From Elsinoe ampelina (Eukaryota), in the NCBI GenBank assembly GCA_010093995.1, contig ML992525.1, positions 61,392 to 81,391 on the forward strand: DNA of 20,000 bases, written 5' to 3'. The position numbers and the translations under genes are program-made. The notes beneath the pieces were generated by a model. The model saw only the letters and a program-made list of their open reading frames with translations. It ran no database searches and was not told the DNA's origin. Positions 2,583 to 11,789 of the stretch are shown one piece after another. The first letter of the stretch is position 1. Each line of letters begins with the position of its first letter.

Positions 2583-3925
2583 ATGGATCCACAAGCTGTA
2601 GCCGAGTTGCAAGAGATTGTTGCGCAAGCAGGCATATTCAAATGGCCACTCTACTTCAGTATCCTAATACCACTATGGGCTATGATCGGAGGAATCGTGC
2701 GTCCCATATCATGCCTCCAACGGGCGAGCGAAGGCTAACAAGAATTGCTCTAGTCTTACCTCACACTCTTAGTTGTCGCACCGATCCCACGACCACCAAA
2801 GAAACCTGAGAAGCAATATGAAGCAATACTACCGGATGGTTCAGTCAGTCCCCCAACACCACTACCGGATTGGCATGAAGACTATAGAACACGGAAACTT
2901 GCGGCGAGGAGAGAGGGCAAATCGACCGCTGCTGTGCACACAACCACTGAGCCAGAGGTGTTCATGTCGCTAGTCGTTCCAGCCTTCAACGAGGAGGAGC
3001 GATTGACAGGCATGCTCGACGAGGCGGTCGAGTATTTAGACAAGGCATATCCCACCGATCTTAGCAAAGGGGTTGACAATGGCACCTTGTCTGAAACACT
3101 CAAAGGCGACAGCATTCGAGGAGGATGGGAAATCTTGGTAGTCTCGGACGGGTCCACAGACAAGACCAAAGATGTGGCGCTAGAATTCGCGCGCAAGCAC
3201 AAACTCTTTGACTCATCTACAACGAACGGGACAACAGCGCCCGTCTCGAAATATTCAAAGTCATCTGCGGCCGCACCAGTCGGGTCACCTGCTGGTACAC
3301 TCCGAGTCATTTCGCTCGAGCAGAACAGAGGCAAAGGCGGCGCCACTGTACATGGAATGCGGCACGCACGGGGAGCTTACGTTTTGTTCGCTGACGCAGA
3401 TGGAGCTTCACGCTTTTCAGATCTCGCAGGTCTTGTCGATGGCTGCGAGAGAGTTAAAGACACCAAGGGCCGTGCCGTTGGTATCGGCAGTCGAGCGCAT
3501 CTCGTTGGTAGCGAAGCGGTGGTGAAGGTATGTGTAAGCATGTCTGCCTATACGTGATCACGAGCTGACCCTACCAGCGTTCATTTCTCCGCAATGCTCT
3601 CATGCACTCTTTCCACGTTCTTTTGCGCATAATGACTCCACCCAAAACAGCTTCGATCAAAGATACCCAGTGCGGCTTCAAGCTCTTTTCGCGGCCTGCT
3701 TTGCCTTACATCGTACCATACATGCATAACGAGGGGTGGATCTTCGACGTCGAGATGCTGATGCTTGCCGAATATGCCAAGATACCAATGGTTGAGGTCT
3801 CGATAGGCTGGCACGAGGTGAAGGGGAGCAAGCTGAATGTGATATGGGATTCTCTGGGTATGGCATGGGGTCTTGCTATACTACGCTTGGCTTGGATGGC
3901 CGGCGTCTACACGAGGGACTTCTAG
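2583..3925 (+). CDS. ALG5: Dolichyl-phosphate beta-glucosyltransferase (GT2); join(2583..2696,2754..3527,3578..3925), 411 aa
   Basis: N-terminal TM (WPLYFSILIPLWAMIGGI|SYLTLLVVAP), then GT2 motifs SLVVPAFNEEERL, EILVVSDGSTD, NRGKGGA, LFADADGAS, IGSRAHL, IKDTQCGFKLF, GWIFDVEML and WHEVKGSKL. Confidence 0.95.
2697..2753 (+). other. Intron 1 of ALG5 (57 nt)
   Basis: Donor GTGCGT, branch GCTAAC, acceptor TAG 2751-2753. Contains an in-frame TAA; phase 0. Confidence 0.85.
3528..3577 (+). other. Intron 2 of ALG5 (50 nt)
   Basis: Donor GTATGT, branch GCTGAC, acceptor CAG. Joins AVVK|RSFLRNALM. Confidence 0.92.
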
Positions 3926-4625: not shown

Positions 4626-6506
4626 ATGGATCCACAAAGTGTCGTCTTTCAACCCCAGGATAATCTTTGGCGCCTGCAGAACGAGCTGCAGAGGATACAG
4701 GCTGTGCAAGCAGAACACTCGGATCGGATACTGAGGATAGAGAGGAAGCACGACGAGGACGCGAGGATGAAGTCGGTCTGGGGAGGTGCTTCACCTTTTC
4801 CCAACGTGCTAAGCGGCGGCACTCCACAGCAGAGTAAGAGCTTCGACAAGATGTGAGGTGAGGGACACTGATGATCTCTAGCTCCGCTCCATCAACCGAC
4901 GACAGATGCCTTCAAAGAGTTCGACGACGAATCTGCGAATCTGATCGGTAGTCTTCACCTCGACCCAGAAGAAGAGCCGAGGAGGATAGGAGCGACTTCG
5001 CGTGCAAACAGTGTGCGGTTCGACGAGTCGGCGAACCAAGGATGGGCTCACACATCACGGTCGTCAATGGACCTCATGCGGTCAGGCGGAGGCCTGCCAA
5101 TGAGCGAACGCACATCATCACACAAGTCCGAAGGCCGGGCCAGCTCTGTTCACTCCATACGCTCCGCGGCATCCGGTCGAGCGAATAGCTTGAACCTGGA
5201 TACTGGCTTTAGCTTCGGGGACTCCAACCGATCACCCGTCGACACTCCTGGTCTCGCCCCTGGTCTCTTCCTGCTCGGGTCTGTGCCGGCCATCATCAGA
5301 TGTTGGATGAACAACAGCTTCCGCCATGATGCCCTCTTATACGCTGCCGTTTGTACCGGGTCTCATAAGTCTTTCCTTGATCGAAGATTGGTGGACAGGC
5401 TGGGCTTCGCAAGTCGCATCAACATCACGACCTCTGGGTTGCAGACGATCGTGCTGCCAATGTACTTTCCCGAGGCCGTTCCTCACCCGACTTCAACCAG
5501 ATCTGGAAGCCCGGCACCTCAATTACCCACTCTCACAGTCACTTTCTCCATCTTGCCAGCTCCTCTGCTCGATAGCAGCGACGATAAAGGCATTCAGATC
5601 ATTCTAGGTAGCGATACCTTGCGAGTCCACAATGCTGACGTCCTCTTCTCTTCAAATAATCTCTCACTCTTTGATGATGACCGGAACAAGATCTCGATAC
5701 CTCTAGTGCGACCCGAGGACGAGCGGACTTTCAATGTCCTCCGGACGACTGCTTCTGAGCCTCAAGCACAAAGTCGACAAGTCAAGCCGGAGAGCAGCAG
5801 TCCCCCAAAGGCTATGATCAATGGTCTGGGGCAGAGCAGTCAGTCATCTGCGGAGAGTGTTCCATCACTGGCTGCTGGGGTTCCCATAGGCACACAAAGA
5901 ACTGCGGCGATAGCACCACCCCCAGGATTTGCGGCTGGACTAGGCGCGAACGACTCTAGCGAAGATGATGAGCCACCTTCGACGGGAAGATCGATACGAT
6001 TCGCCCAACTACCCTCACAATCATCCTCCTCAACCGCGACAGAAACTCCTTCAGTATCCAAGGACGGCGAGACTAATCGGACTACTCCAGCCCGGGCACC
6101 AACATCGCCAGCCATCTGGAGCAATTGGAGACAACGTGGACCGGAATCATCACAGACCAGTGCGATGGATTATGCAAATGCCAGCAAGGCGAAGGAGCCA
6201 GCGCCGAGGAAAGAATCGGGCATCAAGGTCTTGCGACCAATGAAGTCGGCTTCAAGGACATTCTCGGCAACGTCGACTTCGTCAGCCTCGAACGACGGCA
6301 AATCACGATTCTTCGATGACGGTAAACGGAGAGCAACAATGGAGTCGGTACCTGGCGATCAGCAACGTGAGGGTTCATCTTCAGTCGACGGTGGCGACAA
6401 GGGCATACAAGGACAGGGTGGCTCTTCCACTGGTGGTCAGGCACGGGTGAATCCTGCAGGTGGAGCATCTGCCTTCTCATGGTTGAGCAAAGGAGGCTCC
6501 AAGTGA
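4626..6506 (+). CDS. Uncharacterised fungal protein: N-terminal coiled coil + Ddi1/retropepsin-like domain (CTG motif) + disordered tail; join(4626..4833,4882..6506), 610 aa
   Basis: ATG 4626 and a clean intron join the two ORFs in frame (TPQQ|TPLHQP...RANSVRFDESA). Coiled-coil-like LWRLQNELQRIQAVQAEHSDRILRIERK. Central globular region with LYAAVCTGSHKSFLD and IILGSDTLRVH. Confidence refers to the gene model; the fold call is inference. Confidence 0.85.
4834..4881 (+). other. Intron (48 nt)
   Basis: Donor GTAAGA, branch ACTGAT, acceptor TAG 4879-4881. Contains an in-frame TGA. Confidence 0.88.
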
Positions 6507-7144
6507 GGGACCTACTACATCGCACACTGGATAGAGGTTGAGACGACTGTATGACCGGTGCGACATGATGATGAAGGATGAAACAATCCTAGGCATAATA
6601 CCTCGTAAGAACAGCGAGAATAATAATACAAACCATTGTGAAATGTGAATGATTATGACTGAGCAGAAGTGACAATGGCTGAATGTGGAAAGCAGGGGGC
6701 GGATAGAAGGCGCTCAGGAGAGACTGCTTTTTGTCTCTGCCAAAACGCTGCAGCTTCATCCATATATCTATCAATTCATAATTACCATCAGACAAGCGTG
6801 CTCCCGCCAGTTCATCATCGGCCAGTCAATCGCCAGACCAACCTCGCCATCCCACCAGAGATCCCCAAAGTTCGGCCAAAAATTTCAGCCCGCAGGACCC
6901 GCTCGCCGCCCAGCCCTGCACAAGAATCCAGGCACTTGGGAATTACGCACCATTCTTTACGTCAGACGTTCAAGCATCCGTCAAACCCCTCCGGACTACC
7001 TTCTCTCGCAAGCAGCATCCTCTGCTGTCACATCAATCTACCTGCTGTACCGATCGCGTCCTTCCCTCATCCGCGATCCACAGAAGAAACACTACTCATC
7101 CGCATCCTTCCCCGGAGCTGCCCAAACCTAGGGCAGCTCTCGCC

Positions 7145-10100
7145 CTGGCCGCAACAACGGCTTCCCACCCGAAGAAGCGCAAGACCACGCCTTCCACCAC
7201 AGCCACACCCACGGGCGTATCCCTCTTCGCTCCCGAAGTGCTCCATCCAGACCGCCAACCGTCGCCGTCGCTGGGAAGTTCGTCGCCTGCTCAGCTCACG
7301 AACGGCTTAGGGAGTACAAGCGCGCCTTCCTCTCCGCCCCACGCCGAGACCGCAGGACCGGTAGGTGGGCACAGGGGTTTCCTGGACGGCATCGACGCCG
7401 CGGCGGATAGTCCCAGCGAGGCGTATGCTGCGTTGACGCTGGGTGGTTCTGGGACTGGGTTTGGGATTGAGGACATGAGAGAGGAGGGAAGGAGGTCGGC
7501 GAGTCCGGCGAAGAGAAGTGCCGCTGCCATGGAGGGAGAGGAGAGCGAGGTCGAGATGGTGAACACTCAAGGAGAAGATGCGGCGATTGTGGATGAGAGG
7601 ATTAGCAGGGTCAGGGAGATTTCGAATACTTCAATCGAAGAGGGAGAGGAAGGATATGTCTTGGCAGCTGATTGGTTGAAGAGGGTGCAGGCGAGGTCAT
7701 CAGAGGGCAAGGGGAAAGGTGGACAGCAAGAGACGGCAGGACCGATCGGACCAGTCGACAACTCTGCGATTGTCCCCGAAGGAGCTTTCCAAGGCCCACA
7801 TCTGAAGTTCGAGAAGGGTGATGTCACATTCATCCCCATCAAGCCACAGCTGGAGCGAACAGAGGACTACGAAGTGTTGCCAAAGGCCGCTTGGGACCTC
7901 ATCGTGGAATGGTACGGCATTGCGGATCACCAACTACCCATCATCAGATTTGCAAAGAATACTGCACCTCCAGGATCAGCGGTGACGAACATTCAGTACG
8001 AGATCTATCCGCCTGTTTTCACGGTACGGAAGATGCTCAGTGCCGCCGACAAGTCTACCCGTCCACCTTCTCCGCCTGGGACTAATAACCCCAGCCAGGC
8101 AAATACTGTCCAGACAACACCAGAACGGGAAGCGCAGGCCGTGAAGCTTGTCGCTAGTCGTCAGGACAGATACCAGACTTTCCTCGCCCGGTGCAAGCGT
8201 GCTGCAGGCGTGCCACTTGAGCACAAAGTCAGGCCATGGAAGCAGATCAATACGCAACAGGTAGTGGTCAATCCAACGACTGCGAGCCGTCCTGGAATCC
8301 TCACGCCCGCTGCGTCAAGAACGAATTCTCCTGGTGCCGAGGACTCCACACAGTTGATATCTTCATCACCTCCAAGCCTTGTCGTGGATCGTTCTGAGTT
8401 TGACACCTTCGAGGAAGGTACCAGCATCGAGATCGTCGATCTCAAGGACGAGACTGGAAATCCGAAGTACAATGGCGGCGGCAGCATCACTCTCGACGTT
8501 GTTGGGCTTATCGAGGATCTGACGTTGATTCTTGAAGAGCAAGTACGAGGTCCCGCTGGTGGCGAATTCGTCTCGGATACCAAACGCACGAAAAAGAAAA
8601 ATGAAGAAGCTAAAGCAGCGACTGCTCAGGACTCGGATACTTCGACTTCGGGACCGGTCACGCGAGGTCGAGCTCGAAAGAGCGGTAAATCTCGAGGCAC
8701 CGTCGGGCTGCAGAATCTGGGCAACACTTGCTATATGAACTCTGCGTTGCAGTGTATCAGCCGCATCGAAGAGCTGGCCTGGTACTTCTTGAGCAACAAG
8801 TGGAAGCAGGAAATCAATGGCGACAACCCTCTCGGATATCACGGGAACATGGCCCGGGCTTATGCTGACTTTCTATCTGGGCTTCACAAGGAAGGGCAAG
8901 GCACGTTCACACCTAGGCAGTTCAAGAACGCCCTCGCCAATGCCCAGCCGATGTTTTCTGGATATGGACAGCAGGACTCCCAGGAATTCTTGAGCTTTCT
9001 GGTCGATGCGCTGCATGAGGATCTCAATCGCATTCACAAGAAGCCGTACCTCGAGAATCCAGACTCAGATGACAGCAAGGTACACGATCCAAATTACATC
9101 ACTGAACTTGGTGAGAAGTATCGCGAGAATCACCGAGCAAGGAACAATTCGATAGCCATGGATCTCTTCAGTGGTTTCTACAAGAATCGTATGGACTGCC
9201 CAGAGTGCAAGAAAGTCAGCATCACTTTCGATCCTTATTCTCTTCTGACCTTGCAACTCCCGATCGAGACAACATGGCAGCACAAGGTCATTTATATTCC
9301 GAACAAGGGCGAGGCAAGTCTGCGAATGGTCGACGTAGACAAAAGCGCCTCGATCCGCAACTTCAAGCAAAGATTCGCCGACAAGGTTGGAGCGAAAGCA
9401 GAGAATCTTTTCGTGGCAGAATTCTTCTCGAACAGACTCTACAAAGTGTGGAAAGACACCGAGCAGGTCAGCGAGATTGCTGAGAATGACAAAATTGCCG
9501 TCTTCGAACTTGACCATGCACCGACCAACATCAGCAAGACCAAGTCCTCGCAATATAGATCATTTTCGAGCCCGAGAAGCGAGGACATTCCGGATATGGA
9601 CTCACCGCTTGCTGACTACATGGCTGTCACGGTGGTCAACAGGACGAGGAAAAGTACGTTTTGGAATCCGACATACGAGCCATTGATTGTCATGATCTCG
9701 CGCGAGGAAGCCAAGGATTATGATCTGATACTCAAGAAGATCTTGGCCCAGGTTGCCAAGTATACTTCTCGCAATATCTTATCTGAGGATGCAGCTTTGC
9801 CAACACAACAGACAATCTCGCGCAAGAGCTCCGACAGTGGTCTGACCAGCAATACGGAAAGCCCAGAGCCGGTTGACGGTAAGCTCAGCGATCGGTCCGT
9901 GCCTTCAGAGGATGAGTACGTCAATGTCTCCATGAGGGATGGTTCTAGTCCACCTGCCGACGCACCTGACGACACTCAGGAGATCCTGAGACCTGGAACG
10001 GAAATTCCTAATGGGCTTCGCAGTCTCTTCCAGGTCGGATACTTCGCTTCAGTCAATGGCGACATGAATTGTACTGGTAACAATGGTACCATTGTGGCTG

Positions 10101-11789
10101 CGCCTATGATTGAGCGGGTGAACTACAACACATCGCGTAGAAGCTCTGTTGCATCCGCCACTTCCATACAGTCTGGGCAATCTGGCTCGACGGAACATTC
10201 GACCACAAGTGCAAGGAGCCAGACATTGTCTATCACTGCTGATGACGACGAGAGCGCGGCTACCCTTCTCACCGGTCACAATTCCGATCGCTGGGCGGGC
10301 GACGTGCACAGCGACTCTGATCAAAGCAATTTTGTTCAACCTGCCGACATGGTGGATGACAGCTTCAAAAGTAGCAGCCGTCGGAAGTATGAGAGGACAC
10401 AAAAGGGTCGTCATGGGAACAAACGTGCTCTCAAGACATATGGCAAGAGGGGTCAACGTCTGGCTCCACGCAAAACTGAGAATGTTCGCAGCTTCCCGCC
10501 CCGCAGTCTGTCCGGTCCCAATGCTTCTGATGATCCATATTATATCAAGCTGGGAGAAGGCATCGTGCTCGACTGGGCTGAAGAAGGTTGGGACGCCTTG
10601 TTTGGTTGTACCATTCGCTCGCCAGATGAACGTGGGTATGGTCTCATTGACGAGAAGACACTTCCTGTCGCCAAAGATCCCGAGCTAGATGCAAAGCTTG
10701 AAAAGCGTCAACGCAGAAAGAAGGATGGTATCTCATTGGAGGACTGCTTCGCCGAGACCGCAAGGACGGAGACATTGTCCGAAGAGAATGCCTGGTACTG
10801 CAATCGTTGCAAGGAATTGCGTCGTGCAGACAAGACGCTTGAAATCTGGACCGCGCCTGATATCCTGGTCGTGCATCTCAAGCGTTTCAGCGGTGAGCGA
10901 TATAGGCGGGACAAGGTCGATGTGCTTGTTGACTTTCCCACGGAAGGTCTCGATCTGTCCTCCCGTGTCGGTCTCCAGGAGGACGGGAAAGAGTACCTCT
11001 ACGATCTTTTCGCGGTAGACAACCACTACGGCGGTCTCGGAGGAGGCCACTACACTGCCTACGCCCGCAACTTCTGGGACGGAAATTGGTACGACTTCAA
11101 TGGTAAGCTCTCCTGTCTCACCCTCGTGCTCACTGCTAATGTGTCCAGACTCGATGGTCTCCAAAACCTCCCCTGGCTCCGTCGTGACCACGGCAGCCTA
11201 CCTCCTCTTCTACCGCCGCCGCTCCGACAAGCCCCTCGGTCCACCCTACCTCCAGGCTCTGGTCACCGAAGCCCGCGCCGCAGCCGACGCCTCCGACGAC
11301 GAACCCGTCGACGCCTTTGCCGGTGCAGGCCGCACTCTTGCCTCCGCGACAGAGCAGAAGAAATCCGACCCCACGACCCGCCTCCTCTTACCTGGTCCCA
11401 AGAAGCCGGAGCCGTTGTATGATTCTTCTCCGAGAGATGGCGCGCCAATCGGCACCTGCGATGGGAGGGTGATGCAAGGTCCCATTCGTCCGCCTGCGCT
11501 GGGGGGAGACGCGGGCTGGGGCTTCGGGGGACTGGATGGGACTGATGACGCGGACGCGGATGGGGATGGGGAAGGGGCGGGAGGCGCAGGGAGCGATGCT
11601 GATTCCATGAATCCTGAGACGGGAGAGGGAGATGGGGAGGGGAGGAGGGGGTTCATCTTGGGGGAACCGGAGGTGGAGCAGGAGGAGACGGGGGATATGG
11701 AGGGGGTGGTGCGCAGTGTGGAGTTTCTCGGTGATGGGGATGGGGATGGCAAGGCGGATGGCATTGACGAGGATGATGTGGAAGGGTAG
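7145..11789 (+). CDS. UBP12: Ubiquitin-specific protease, USP4/11/15-like (DUSP + C19 peptidase); join(start..11102,11149..11789). First in-frame ATG is 7475 (1422 aa); the proposed CUG start at 7145 gives 1532 aa
   Basis: DUSP motifs GYVLAADWL, GPIGPVDNSAI and DYEVLPKAAWDLIVEWYG. Cys box [20 protein letters not shown] (Cys codon 8729-8731), QQDSQEFL, Zn pairs CPEC and CNRC, VVHLKRF, His box YDLFAVDNHYGGLGGGHYTAY, WYDFN|DS, AYLLFYRRR. The start position is uncertain. Confidence 0.93.
11103..11148 (+). other. Intron of UBP12 (46 nt)
   Basis: Donor GTAAGC, branch GCTAAT, acceptor CAG. Splicing creates the FND motif and puts AYLLFYRRR in frame. Confidence 0.93.

Follow-up and report, generated by a model that had tools for sequence, protein, structure and literature searches.

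The 20,000-nucleotide stretch of Elsinoe ampelina DNA analysed here (contig ML992525.1 of assembly GCA_010093995.1, positions 61,392 to 81,391; hereafter the window, whose first letter is position 1) encodes on its forward strand a 610-amino-acid protein with a single globular domain. This domain is modelled as a retropepsin fold of the Ddi1 type in which cysteine stands at the position of the catalytic aspartate. It has the marks of a pseudoenzyme, as far as the family alignment and the model indicate: the enzyme fold is kept, the canonical catalytic residue is missing, and the Cys-bearing domain appears to be under strong purifying selection. It cannot act as an aspartic protease because the Asp dyad is missing. 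We consider it rather likely that the domain is a dimeric pseudoprotease, around which two disordered arms bearing short motifs are organised.

A retropepsin fold of the Ddi1 type

The RVP-like domain covers residues ~201–347 of the protein (5277..5717, forward strand). An AlphaFold2 model of a 160-amino-acid piece containing it (5250–5730), built with 122 sequences, reached a mean predicted local distance difference test score (pLDDT) of 90.6 and a predicted template modelling score of 0.83, with weaker blocks at residues 1–10, 81–90 and 101–110. In this model a strand (30–34), the C-T-G-S loop, a second strand (41–44) and a helix (45–51) follow one another in an order that fits the retropepsin arrangement. 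Foldseek returned 34 matches in the PDB at E ≤ 0.001, and the top matches were all RVP domains of Ddi1, beginning with 5ys4_D (5.8e-07), followed by 4z2z, 2i1a, 4rgh and 3s8i, down to 6.4e-05. These top-ranking Ddi1 proteins came from Leishmania, yeast, human, Toxoplasma and Cryptosporidium; pepsin-type enzymes and the Rickettsia protease APRc came next, and all 30 matches displayed down to rank 50 (with gaps between ranks) were clan AA proteins. With VIA-align, the model superposed on yeast Ddi1 (2i1a_A) with a Z-score of 14.2 and a root mean square deviation of 2.3 Å over 113 of 114 residues, at 20% identity. Eight Ddi1 entries scored between 13.0 and 14.2, against 7.8 for the next best entry and 6–7.6 for retroviral proteases. 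The predicted fold is superposable on the solved Ddi1 RVP domains, and the model has the form of a clan AA half-barrel in which the active-site-loop position and the hydrophobic-hydrophobic-Gly signature occur in order.

Sequence comparison restricted to the domain led to the same proteins. The domain-only profile A2 was built from the query and 39 of 42 diverse segments (40 sequences), leaving out P0179, P0226 and P0246, which have long insertions or an odd motif. Compared with 177,635 distinct PDB sequences, it gave four matches at E ≤ 10, all of them Ddi1: two yeast constructs (0.0085 and 0.0089) and two Leishmania constructs (0.27 each). These E-values are modest, yet the profile appears to single out Ddi1 exclusively, in agreement with the independent structural result. 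Pfam (2025 copy) assigned 0 families at E ≤ 10 to the 540-amino-acid exon-2 piece and to the 160-amino-acid piece, and searches of the PDB with phmmer using the domain, or with the whole-length profile A1, each returned 0 matches. When Pfam was run on the 40 members of A2, no clan AA family was found at E ≤ 10; seven unrelated families appeared, each in one member, with a best E-value of 0.034.

Cysteine at the catalytic position

The C-T-G-S motif lies at 5352..5363 on the forward strand, where TGT (Cys, 5352–5354) is followed by ACC GGG TCT. Its context in the window protein is A-A-V-C-T-G-S, and the Cys is residue 227 of the protein and position 35 of the domain. The HMMER alignment obtained with A2 sets Y-A-v-v-C-t-G-s of the family over K-A-F-V-D-T-G-A of yeast Ddi1 and K-A-F-V-D-S-G-A of Leishmania Ddi1, and also pairs the next strand and the helix ending in G-L. 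Further along, it sets i-q-i-f-l-G-s-d-v-L-r-a-h over I-D-V-L-I-G-L-D-M-L-K-R-H of yeast Ddi1. The corresponding block of the window protein, I-I-L-G-S-D...L-R-x-H-N-A-D at 5598..5639 on the forward strand, holds the second retropepsin signature (I-I-L-G-S-D, 5598–5615) and the consensus helix (domain residues 121–126), with H-N-A-D at 5628–5639. In this alignment, the family Cys occupies the position of the catalytic Asp of Ddi1. A preliminary description of the window, made from its letters, had proposed a Ddi1/retropepsin-like domain with Cys in place of the catalytic Asp, and had quoted a peptide of it that is indeed encoded on the forward strand with TGT at the site named. Both the structural match to clan AA, with Ddi1 RVP domains at the top, and the profile match, exclusive to Ddi1 in the PDB with Cys laid on the catalytic Asp, bear the proposal out.

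Conservation was counted in an unevenly redundant alignment of 236 sequences, comprising the query and 235 proteins, out of 260 collected, whose sequences span domain residues 12–150. Position 35 is C in 229 sequences, S in 6 and G in 1; position 36 is T in 193 and S in 40; position 37 is G in 231 and A in 5; and position 38 is S in 230. The second signature is conserved as well, with G120 in 235, S121 in 222 and D122 in 226 sequences, followed by H127 (203), A129 (228) and D130 (233). By these counts the conservation of the C-T-G-S and G-S-D motifs appears to be far above chance, and the Cys/T-G motif and the I-L-G-x-D block are kept in orthologs across Pezizomycotina, as the proposal had implied. 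The most conserved spot of the domain is R-C-W in the first strand (5298..5306, forward strand), with R17 and C18 in 236/236 and W19 in 234/236. R-C-W lies outside the residues of the predicted dimer interface.

Adding metagenome loci and removing identical sequences gave 296 distinct domain sequences, with Cys at the catalytic position in 285, Ser in 10, Gly in 1 and Asp in 0. Of the two peptide patterns with which metagenomes were scanned, one contains the Cys and so biases this set partly towards that residue; the other, built around R-C-W, does not depend on it. Among the codons at 80 loci, TGC occurs 42 times and TGT 32 times, and the other 6 loci have a Ser codon (TCT 3, TCC 2, TCG 1). 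Both Cys codons are in use, and the Cys is therefore kept at the protein level through synonymous change.

Departures from Cys fall into eight separate tips or clades of a FastTree tree. Six loci with Ser (L014, L020, L037, L053, L055 and L079) read S-[ST]-A-S and represent four distinct sequences, which sit in one clade (support 0.98) in which G37 is replaced by Ala. The same clade contains three C-S-A-S sequences, one of them from Neodothiora, and the proteins P0081, P0097 and P0106 are tied to it. The Ser of the Hortaea representative P0020 is a singleton: Cys was present in all 10 of the 14 checked members of its cluster (P0287–P0300) in which the motif was found.

Predicted dimer and the role of the cysteine

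Retropepsins are homodimers in which the Asp dyad is supplied by D-T/S-G-A motifs, the Thr/Ser of which forms the fireman's grip and the Gly of which is highly conserved, and their catalytic residues, one from each subunit, lie opposite one another at the axis (PMC7072860). With ESMFold2, in a prediction made without the family alignment, the domain paired with a second copy of itself received 0.76, whereas the best of three controls received 0.01. In the calibration of this method on solved proteins, the mark for a pair was reached by 21 of 30 one-chain pairs and 0 of 23 single chains from microbes, and by 17 of 29 one-chain pairs and 0 of 30 single chains from eukaryotes; of the 7 eukaryotic pairs without an older solved relative, only 1 reached it. 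The dimer runs share at least 70% of their contacts, and the pLDDT of the partner is at least 76. The predicted symmetric interface comprises residues 9–15, 33–39, 118, 120–122, 124–126, 128–134 and 139 of both copies, an arrangement that in the model is that of a retropepsin. Low-error pairs include 36–36′, 35–36′ and 37–35′, so that the C-T-G-S loops of the two copies are predicted to meet at the axis.

The elements on which retropepsin pairing depends are kept in the family: the fireman's grip Thr/Ser 36, Gly 37, the I-x-G-S-D strand and the consensus helix. The domain would therefore most likely pair as a retropepsin-like homodimer, and the long N-terminal helix of the protein may assist the pairing. 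The Cys at the two-fold axis is predicted to touch T36′ and G37′, and we infer that packing and hydrogen bonding are the reason for its retention. The dimeric, cleft-bearing module would then organise two long disordered arms, whose invariant short motifs would recruit partners, and this architecture suggests a scaffold or adaptor function. The joint replacement C35S/G37A was weighed as a size-compensating pair across the predicted axis (contact 37–35′). It is confined to one clade, and C-A and S-G combinations exist; the alignment gives at most a hint of compensation.

A working thiol pair would explain the same Cys in another way. The Cys227 dyad could be a redox switch, forming a reversible disulfide between subunits, or a metal site, in either case controlling pairing or access to the cleft. 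The high frequency of Cys (285 of the 296 distinct sequences, with both codons in use), the contact between the C-T-G-S loops in the dimer model and the facing catalytic residues of retropepsins all fit such a pair. The eight separate non-Cys tips or clades do not, in particular an established Ser lineage that uses three Ser codons. Ser keeps the size and the hydrogen bonding of Cys, but not its disulfide or thiolate chemistry, and could form neither the disulfide nor a thiolate site. Nor does the interface offer a further Cys or His ligand in the model, where C18 and H127 are not interface residues, and the pair 35–35′ is absent from the lowest-error contacts listed. The Ser lineage argues against a thiol role as the general role of the domain and tilts the balance towards a scaffold. 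The preliminary description had left the choice between a catalytically dead scaffold and a Cys-dyad variant; its fold and Cys position stand, the scaffold is favoured through the stable Ser lineage, and redox or metal chemistry of the thiol is a minor possibility.

The restricted range of replacements, Ser in 10 sequences and Gly in 1, also brings to mind a new catalytic type in which Cys, or Ser in some lineages, would act as the nucleophile of a hydrolase of, for example, peptide or isopeptide bonds. Exchange between Cys and Ser is typical of nucleophile sites, and the elements that form the cleft are conserved. However, a general base is not evident: H127 derives from the helix block of Ddi1 and does not appear among the interface residues listed. 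The site is occupied by Gly in one sequence, and the neighbouring Gly is changed to Ala in the Ser lineage, which resembles relaxation or repacking rather than a tuned active site. We know of no thiol or serine hydrolase on the retropepsin fold, and none was found in literature listings and abstracts. A hydrolase of this kind seems to us distinctly improbable.

Several points weigh against a dimeric pseudoprotease scaffold as the function of the domain. The relationship to Ddi1 was missed by single-sequence searches and by the whole-length profile, and the sequence evidence for it consists of one profile search with modest E-values. The dimer prediction may owe its success to solved Ddi1 dimers that the model remembers, and architecture is the sole ground for the scaffold role. 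In addition, the Cys is conserved about as well as a catalytic residue (96% of distinct sequences, both codons), and the adjoining T/S-G-S is kept too. Such conservation would exceed that of many dead sites and leaves room for a possible thiol-based function.

The domain also carries a Pro/Ser-rich loop (5466..5528, forward strand; domain residues 73–93) between strands 65–72 and 94–102, which would occupy the position of the retropepsin flap. It reads P-E-A...S-S-R-S-x-S-P-x-P-Q-L-P and is modelled with lower confidence (block pLDDT 69). Within it E75 (227/236), A76 (232/236), R84 (216/236) and P93 (232/236) are conserved. The loop could be a phosphorylation-controlled lid on the cleft.

Disordered arms with conserved motifs

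The architecture of the whole protein was examined in an AlphaFold2 model of the homologue P0010 (607 amino acids, 70 sequences), which is 64% identical to the window's exon-2 protein. In this model pLDDT exceeds 70 only in a helix at 12–52 and in the domain at ~203–355, and 335 of the 607 residues have pLDDT below 50; the domain is accordingly the only globular part, as had been supposed from the letters. The N-terminal helix, of equal length in the window protein (residues 12–52; 4659..4781, forward strand), has pLDDT 76–89 in the P0010 model and is possibly a coiled coil.

The disordered remainder contains short conserved blocks, all on the forward strand. Block 1 (residues 94–120; 4953..5033; pLDDT below 50) includes S-R-A-N-S-V-R-F-D-E-S (4998–5030, residues 109–119), of which S109, R110, V114, R115 and F116 do not vary among 70 full-length sequences. 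The peptide resembles what we take to be the RVxF-type docking motif of protein phosphatase 1, although its first position does not fit that consensus. Block 2 is Ser/Arg-rich (residues 131–173; 5064..5192; pLDDT below 50) and reads E-R..S-H-K-S.G-R.S-S, with R147, S150, S153, G155, S158 and S159 invariant (P0010 numbering). The tail beyond the domain, likewise disordered, carries I-W-x-x-W-R (6114..6131), in which R478 is invariant and W477 nearly so, and G-I-K-V-L-R-P (6219..6239), in which L512 is invariant and K510 and V511 nearly so, again in P0010 numbering. A C-terminal motif, N-P-x-G-G-A-S-A-F-S-W-L (6450..6485), stands a few residues before the stop, with G593, A597 and F598 invariant, and also forms the C-terminus of stand-alone homologues in several classes. 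The invariant motifs of the arms offer a direct way to identify partners.

Gene structure and the neighbouring ubiquitin hydrolase gene

By the reading of open frames, the 610-amino-acid protein is encoded on the forward strand by two exons, 4626–4833 and 4882–6506. Exon 1 (4626..4833) begins with ATG at 4626 and comprises 69 codons and one base; it is covered by spliced contigs, and its N-terminus agrees with those of full-length homologues such as P0010. A single open frame runs across 4875–6506 and is joined to this upstream exon. The intron (4834..4881) is 48 nucleotides long with GT..AG borders, and exon 2 (4882..6506), covered by an X1 contig, ends with TGA at 6504–6506. Four public runs were consulted, the RNA nature of which is a guessed label only, and three of them carry the spliced form: contigs from X1, X2 and X3, from two studies, have the joint 4833>4882, which skips the 48 nucleotides. 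One X1 contig spans 4300–4833 and 4882–6536. Because contigs of these runs carry the joint 4833>4882, the gene is transcribed and spliced as modelled. The model of a 610-amino-acid protein is thereby borne out.

A separate open reading frame with DUSP and UCH domains lies downstream (7238–11422, forward strand), and some databases present the two genes as one. Four representatives from Elsinoe, Aulographum, Eremomyces and Lophiotrema, all Dothideomycetes (P0123, P0124, P0128 and P0146; 2149–2266 amino acids, with DUSP and UCH), fuse both, and they raise the possibility that the region studied here is the N-terminal part of a DUSP-USP deubiquitinase of 2,100–2,300 amino acids in which the RVP-like domain would be regulatory. 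The position of the USP gene was scored in 36 metagenome loci with at least 4 kilobases 3′ of the domain. In 18 of them (L008, L009, L013, L016 and others) it follows downstream on the same strand, in agreement with such a fusion; one locus has it downstream on the other strand, two have it upstream, and 15 lack it within the flank. The partners in fused models from other fungi differ: in Diplocarpon mali the neighbour joined is a GDSL lipase, and the Neopestalotiopsis fusion involves thiamine synthesis enzymes. In the window, TGA at 6504–6506 follows the C-terminal motif by a few residues, stand-alone homologues of several classes end in the same way, and the spliced X1 contig ends at 6536. 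The conserved C-terminal motif with its stop and the end of this contig speak for a 610-amino-acid gene separate from the USP gene. The stretch 6616–6979 between the two genes was covered by no contig of the four runs and was not counted as evidence. That the two genes make one protein is in our judgement extremely improbable.

Pfam did not find a UCH/USP domain (PF00443) with its Cys and His boxes in the exon-2 protein, in keeping with the earlier remark that the protein has no USP motifs of its own; UCH and DUSP are present only in the separate downstream open reading frame and in the fused models. Polyubiquitin binding, which had been suggested for the domain, found no support: UBL and UBA domains were not found, and adjacency to the USP gene is a matter of shared gene order, absent in 15 of the 36 loci.

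Two further observations concern the surroundings and the strain. Position 6151 carries C>T in contigs of X2, X3 and X6, and not in X1. At residue 493, which belongs to the disordered tail, the change replaces TCA (Ser) by TTA (Leu); it is probably a strain polymorphism. Upstream, at 2934–3925 on the forward strand, two open reading frame pieces (2934–3557 and 3602–3925) belong to a family-2 glycosyltransferase gene that is probably split by an intron.

Distribution of the family and database names

Of 1630 candidates from a word-indexed search with the domain region, 615 proteins reached E ≤ 0.001, and the top 120 of these were 59–71% identical and mostly from Dothideomycetes. With phmmer, 1.84 billion cluster representatives gave 160 clusters at E ≤ 0.001, of which 151 were at ≤ 1e-10 and 118 at ≤ 1e-30. 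By these searches the family appears compact, without a distant tail. The nearest relative is a model from Elsinoe fawcettii, with 94% identity across the domain. Named members came from six classes of Pezizomycotina, and none from outside it. Besides Dothideomycetes, these are Pezizomycetes (Geopyxis, Kalaharituber, Ascodesmis, Rhizina), Leotiomycetes (Podosphaera, Diplocarpon), Lecanoromycetes (Caeruleum, Letrouitia), Eurotiomycetes (Emmonsiellopsis) and Sordariomycetes (Chaetomium, Thielaviopsis, Rhypophila, Neopestalotiopsis). By Atlas language-model features, the nearest clusters were two unnamed ones from Basidiomycota, of ~200 amino acids (0.90 and 0.83, with 0.76 for a Ddi1 cluster), which could be relatives outside Ascomycota. 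Profile search did not confirm this kinship; run on proteins of 84–287 amino acids, it retrieved 16 fragments, all belonging to the present ascomycete family.

All named members are called either 'hypothetical protein' or by a ubiquitin-hydrolase name, and no characterised family member was found among them. The hydrolase names extend to stand-alone members of ~600 amino acids, as in 'Ubiquitin carboxyl-terminal hydrolase 19' (UniRef) and 'UCH-domain-containing protein' (NCBI, Hortaea), and probably spread from models fused to the neighbouring USP gene. No paper describing the family was found in the literature at the level of listings and abstracts.

Comparison with known retropepsins and pseudoproteases

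The closest known system is the RVP domain of Ddi1/Ddi2 (MEROPS A28, PF09668; 2i1a, 4z2z, 3s8i, 4rgh and 5ys4), which has the same fold at Z 13–14. The two share a strand, the active-site loop, a second strand, a helix ending in G-L/F, a hydrophobic-x-G-x-D strand and a consensus helix with His, and the family is predicted to share the symmetric dimer formed through the active-site loops. Unlike in Ddi1, the catalytic position is Cys and never Asp (0/296), Ser replaces the Ala of the motif, the first hairpin loop is longer, and a Pro/Ser-rich loop of ~20 residues would take the place of the flap hairpin. Ddi1/Ddi2 proteins have an N-terminal ubiquitin-like domain, a helical HDD and, in yeast, a C-terminal UBA domain; no UBL, HDD or UBA domain was detected here, either by Pfam on the exon-2 protein or in the P0010 model. 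The family also falls below every Pfam threshold (0 of 40 members) and, again unlike Ddi1, is restricted to Pezizomycotina among named members.

Retroviral and bacterial retropepsins (the HIV-1, FIV, M-PMV and XMRV proteases, APRc, and RloA/RimB-type proteins) have the clan AA half-barrel in common with the domain, at Z 6–7.8, as well as a D-T/S-G-A-type loop followed in the same order by the hydrophobic-hydrophobic-Gly signature. They are more distant than Ddi1 (Z at most 7.8, against 14.2), and all are active Asp enzymes. Unlike for retroviral proteases, no viral or transposon gene context was seen at the window gene. Comparable in kind are pseudoproteases such as the iRhoms and CspC. Like the present family, they are conserved and retain the fold of an enzyme whose canonical catalytic residue they have lost, a combination that implies a non-canonical function. 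Plasmodium HAP, which appears in the Foldseek listing, also has altered catalytic residues, but it is a two-lobed enzyme of the pepsin type and not a retropepsin dimer.

Literature listings and abstracts likewise revealed no family on the retropepsin fold in which a conserved Cys stands in place of the Asp. A Ddi1-like domain spread through a whole subphylum with a fixed Cys at its catalytic position therefore appears to be undescribed; what is already known is the fold itself and the concept of a pseudoprotease. For annotation, the family marks both a gap, a domain without a Pfam model, and a naming error, in that ubiquitin-hydrolase names are carried by members that lack such a domain. It is unlikely that the symmetric Cys pair at the axis is a working thiol dyad in place of the Asp dyad, be it as a redox- or metal-gated dimeric switch or as a thiol hydrolase; if it were, such a dyad would have been conserved over an entire fungal subphylum while hidden beneath a wrong database name.

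Within cells, retroviral proteases have their main relatives in the Ddi1-type domains, whose non-catalytic uses have, to our knowledge, been little explored. The family constitutes a natural experiment, in which the fold and the dimer residues are kept and the Cys is fixed, and it can show what role a retropepsin dimer plays without its Asp dyad.

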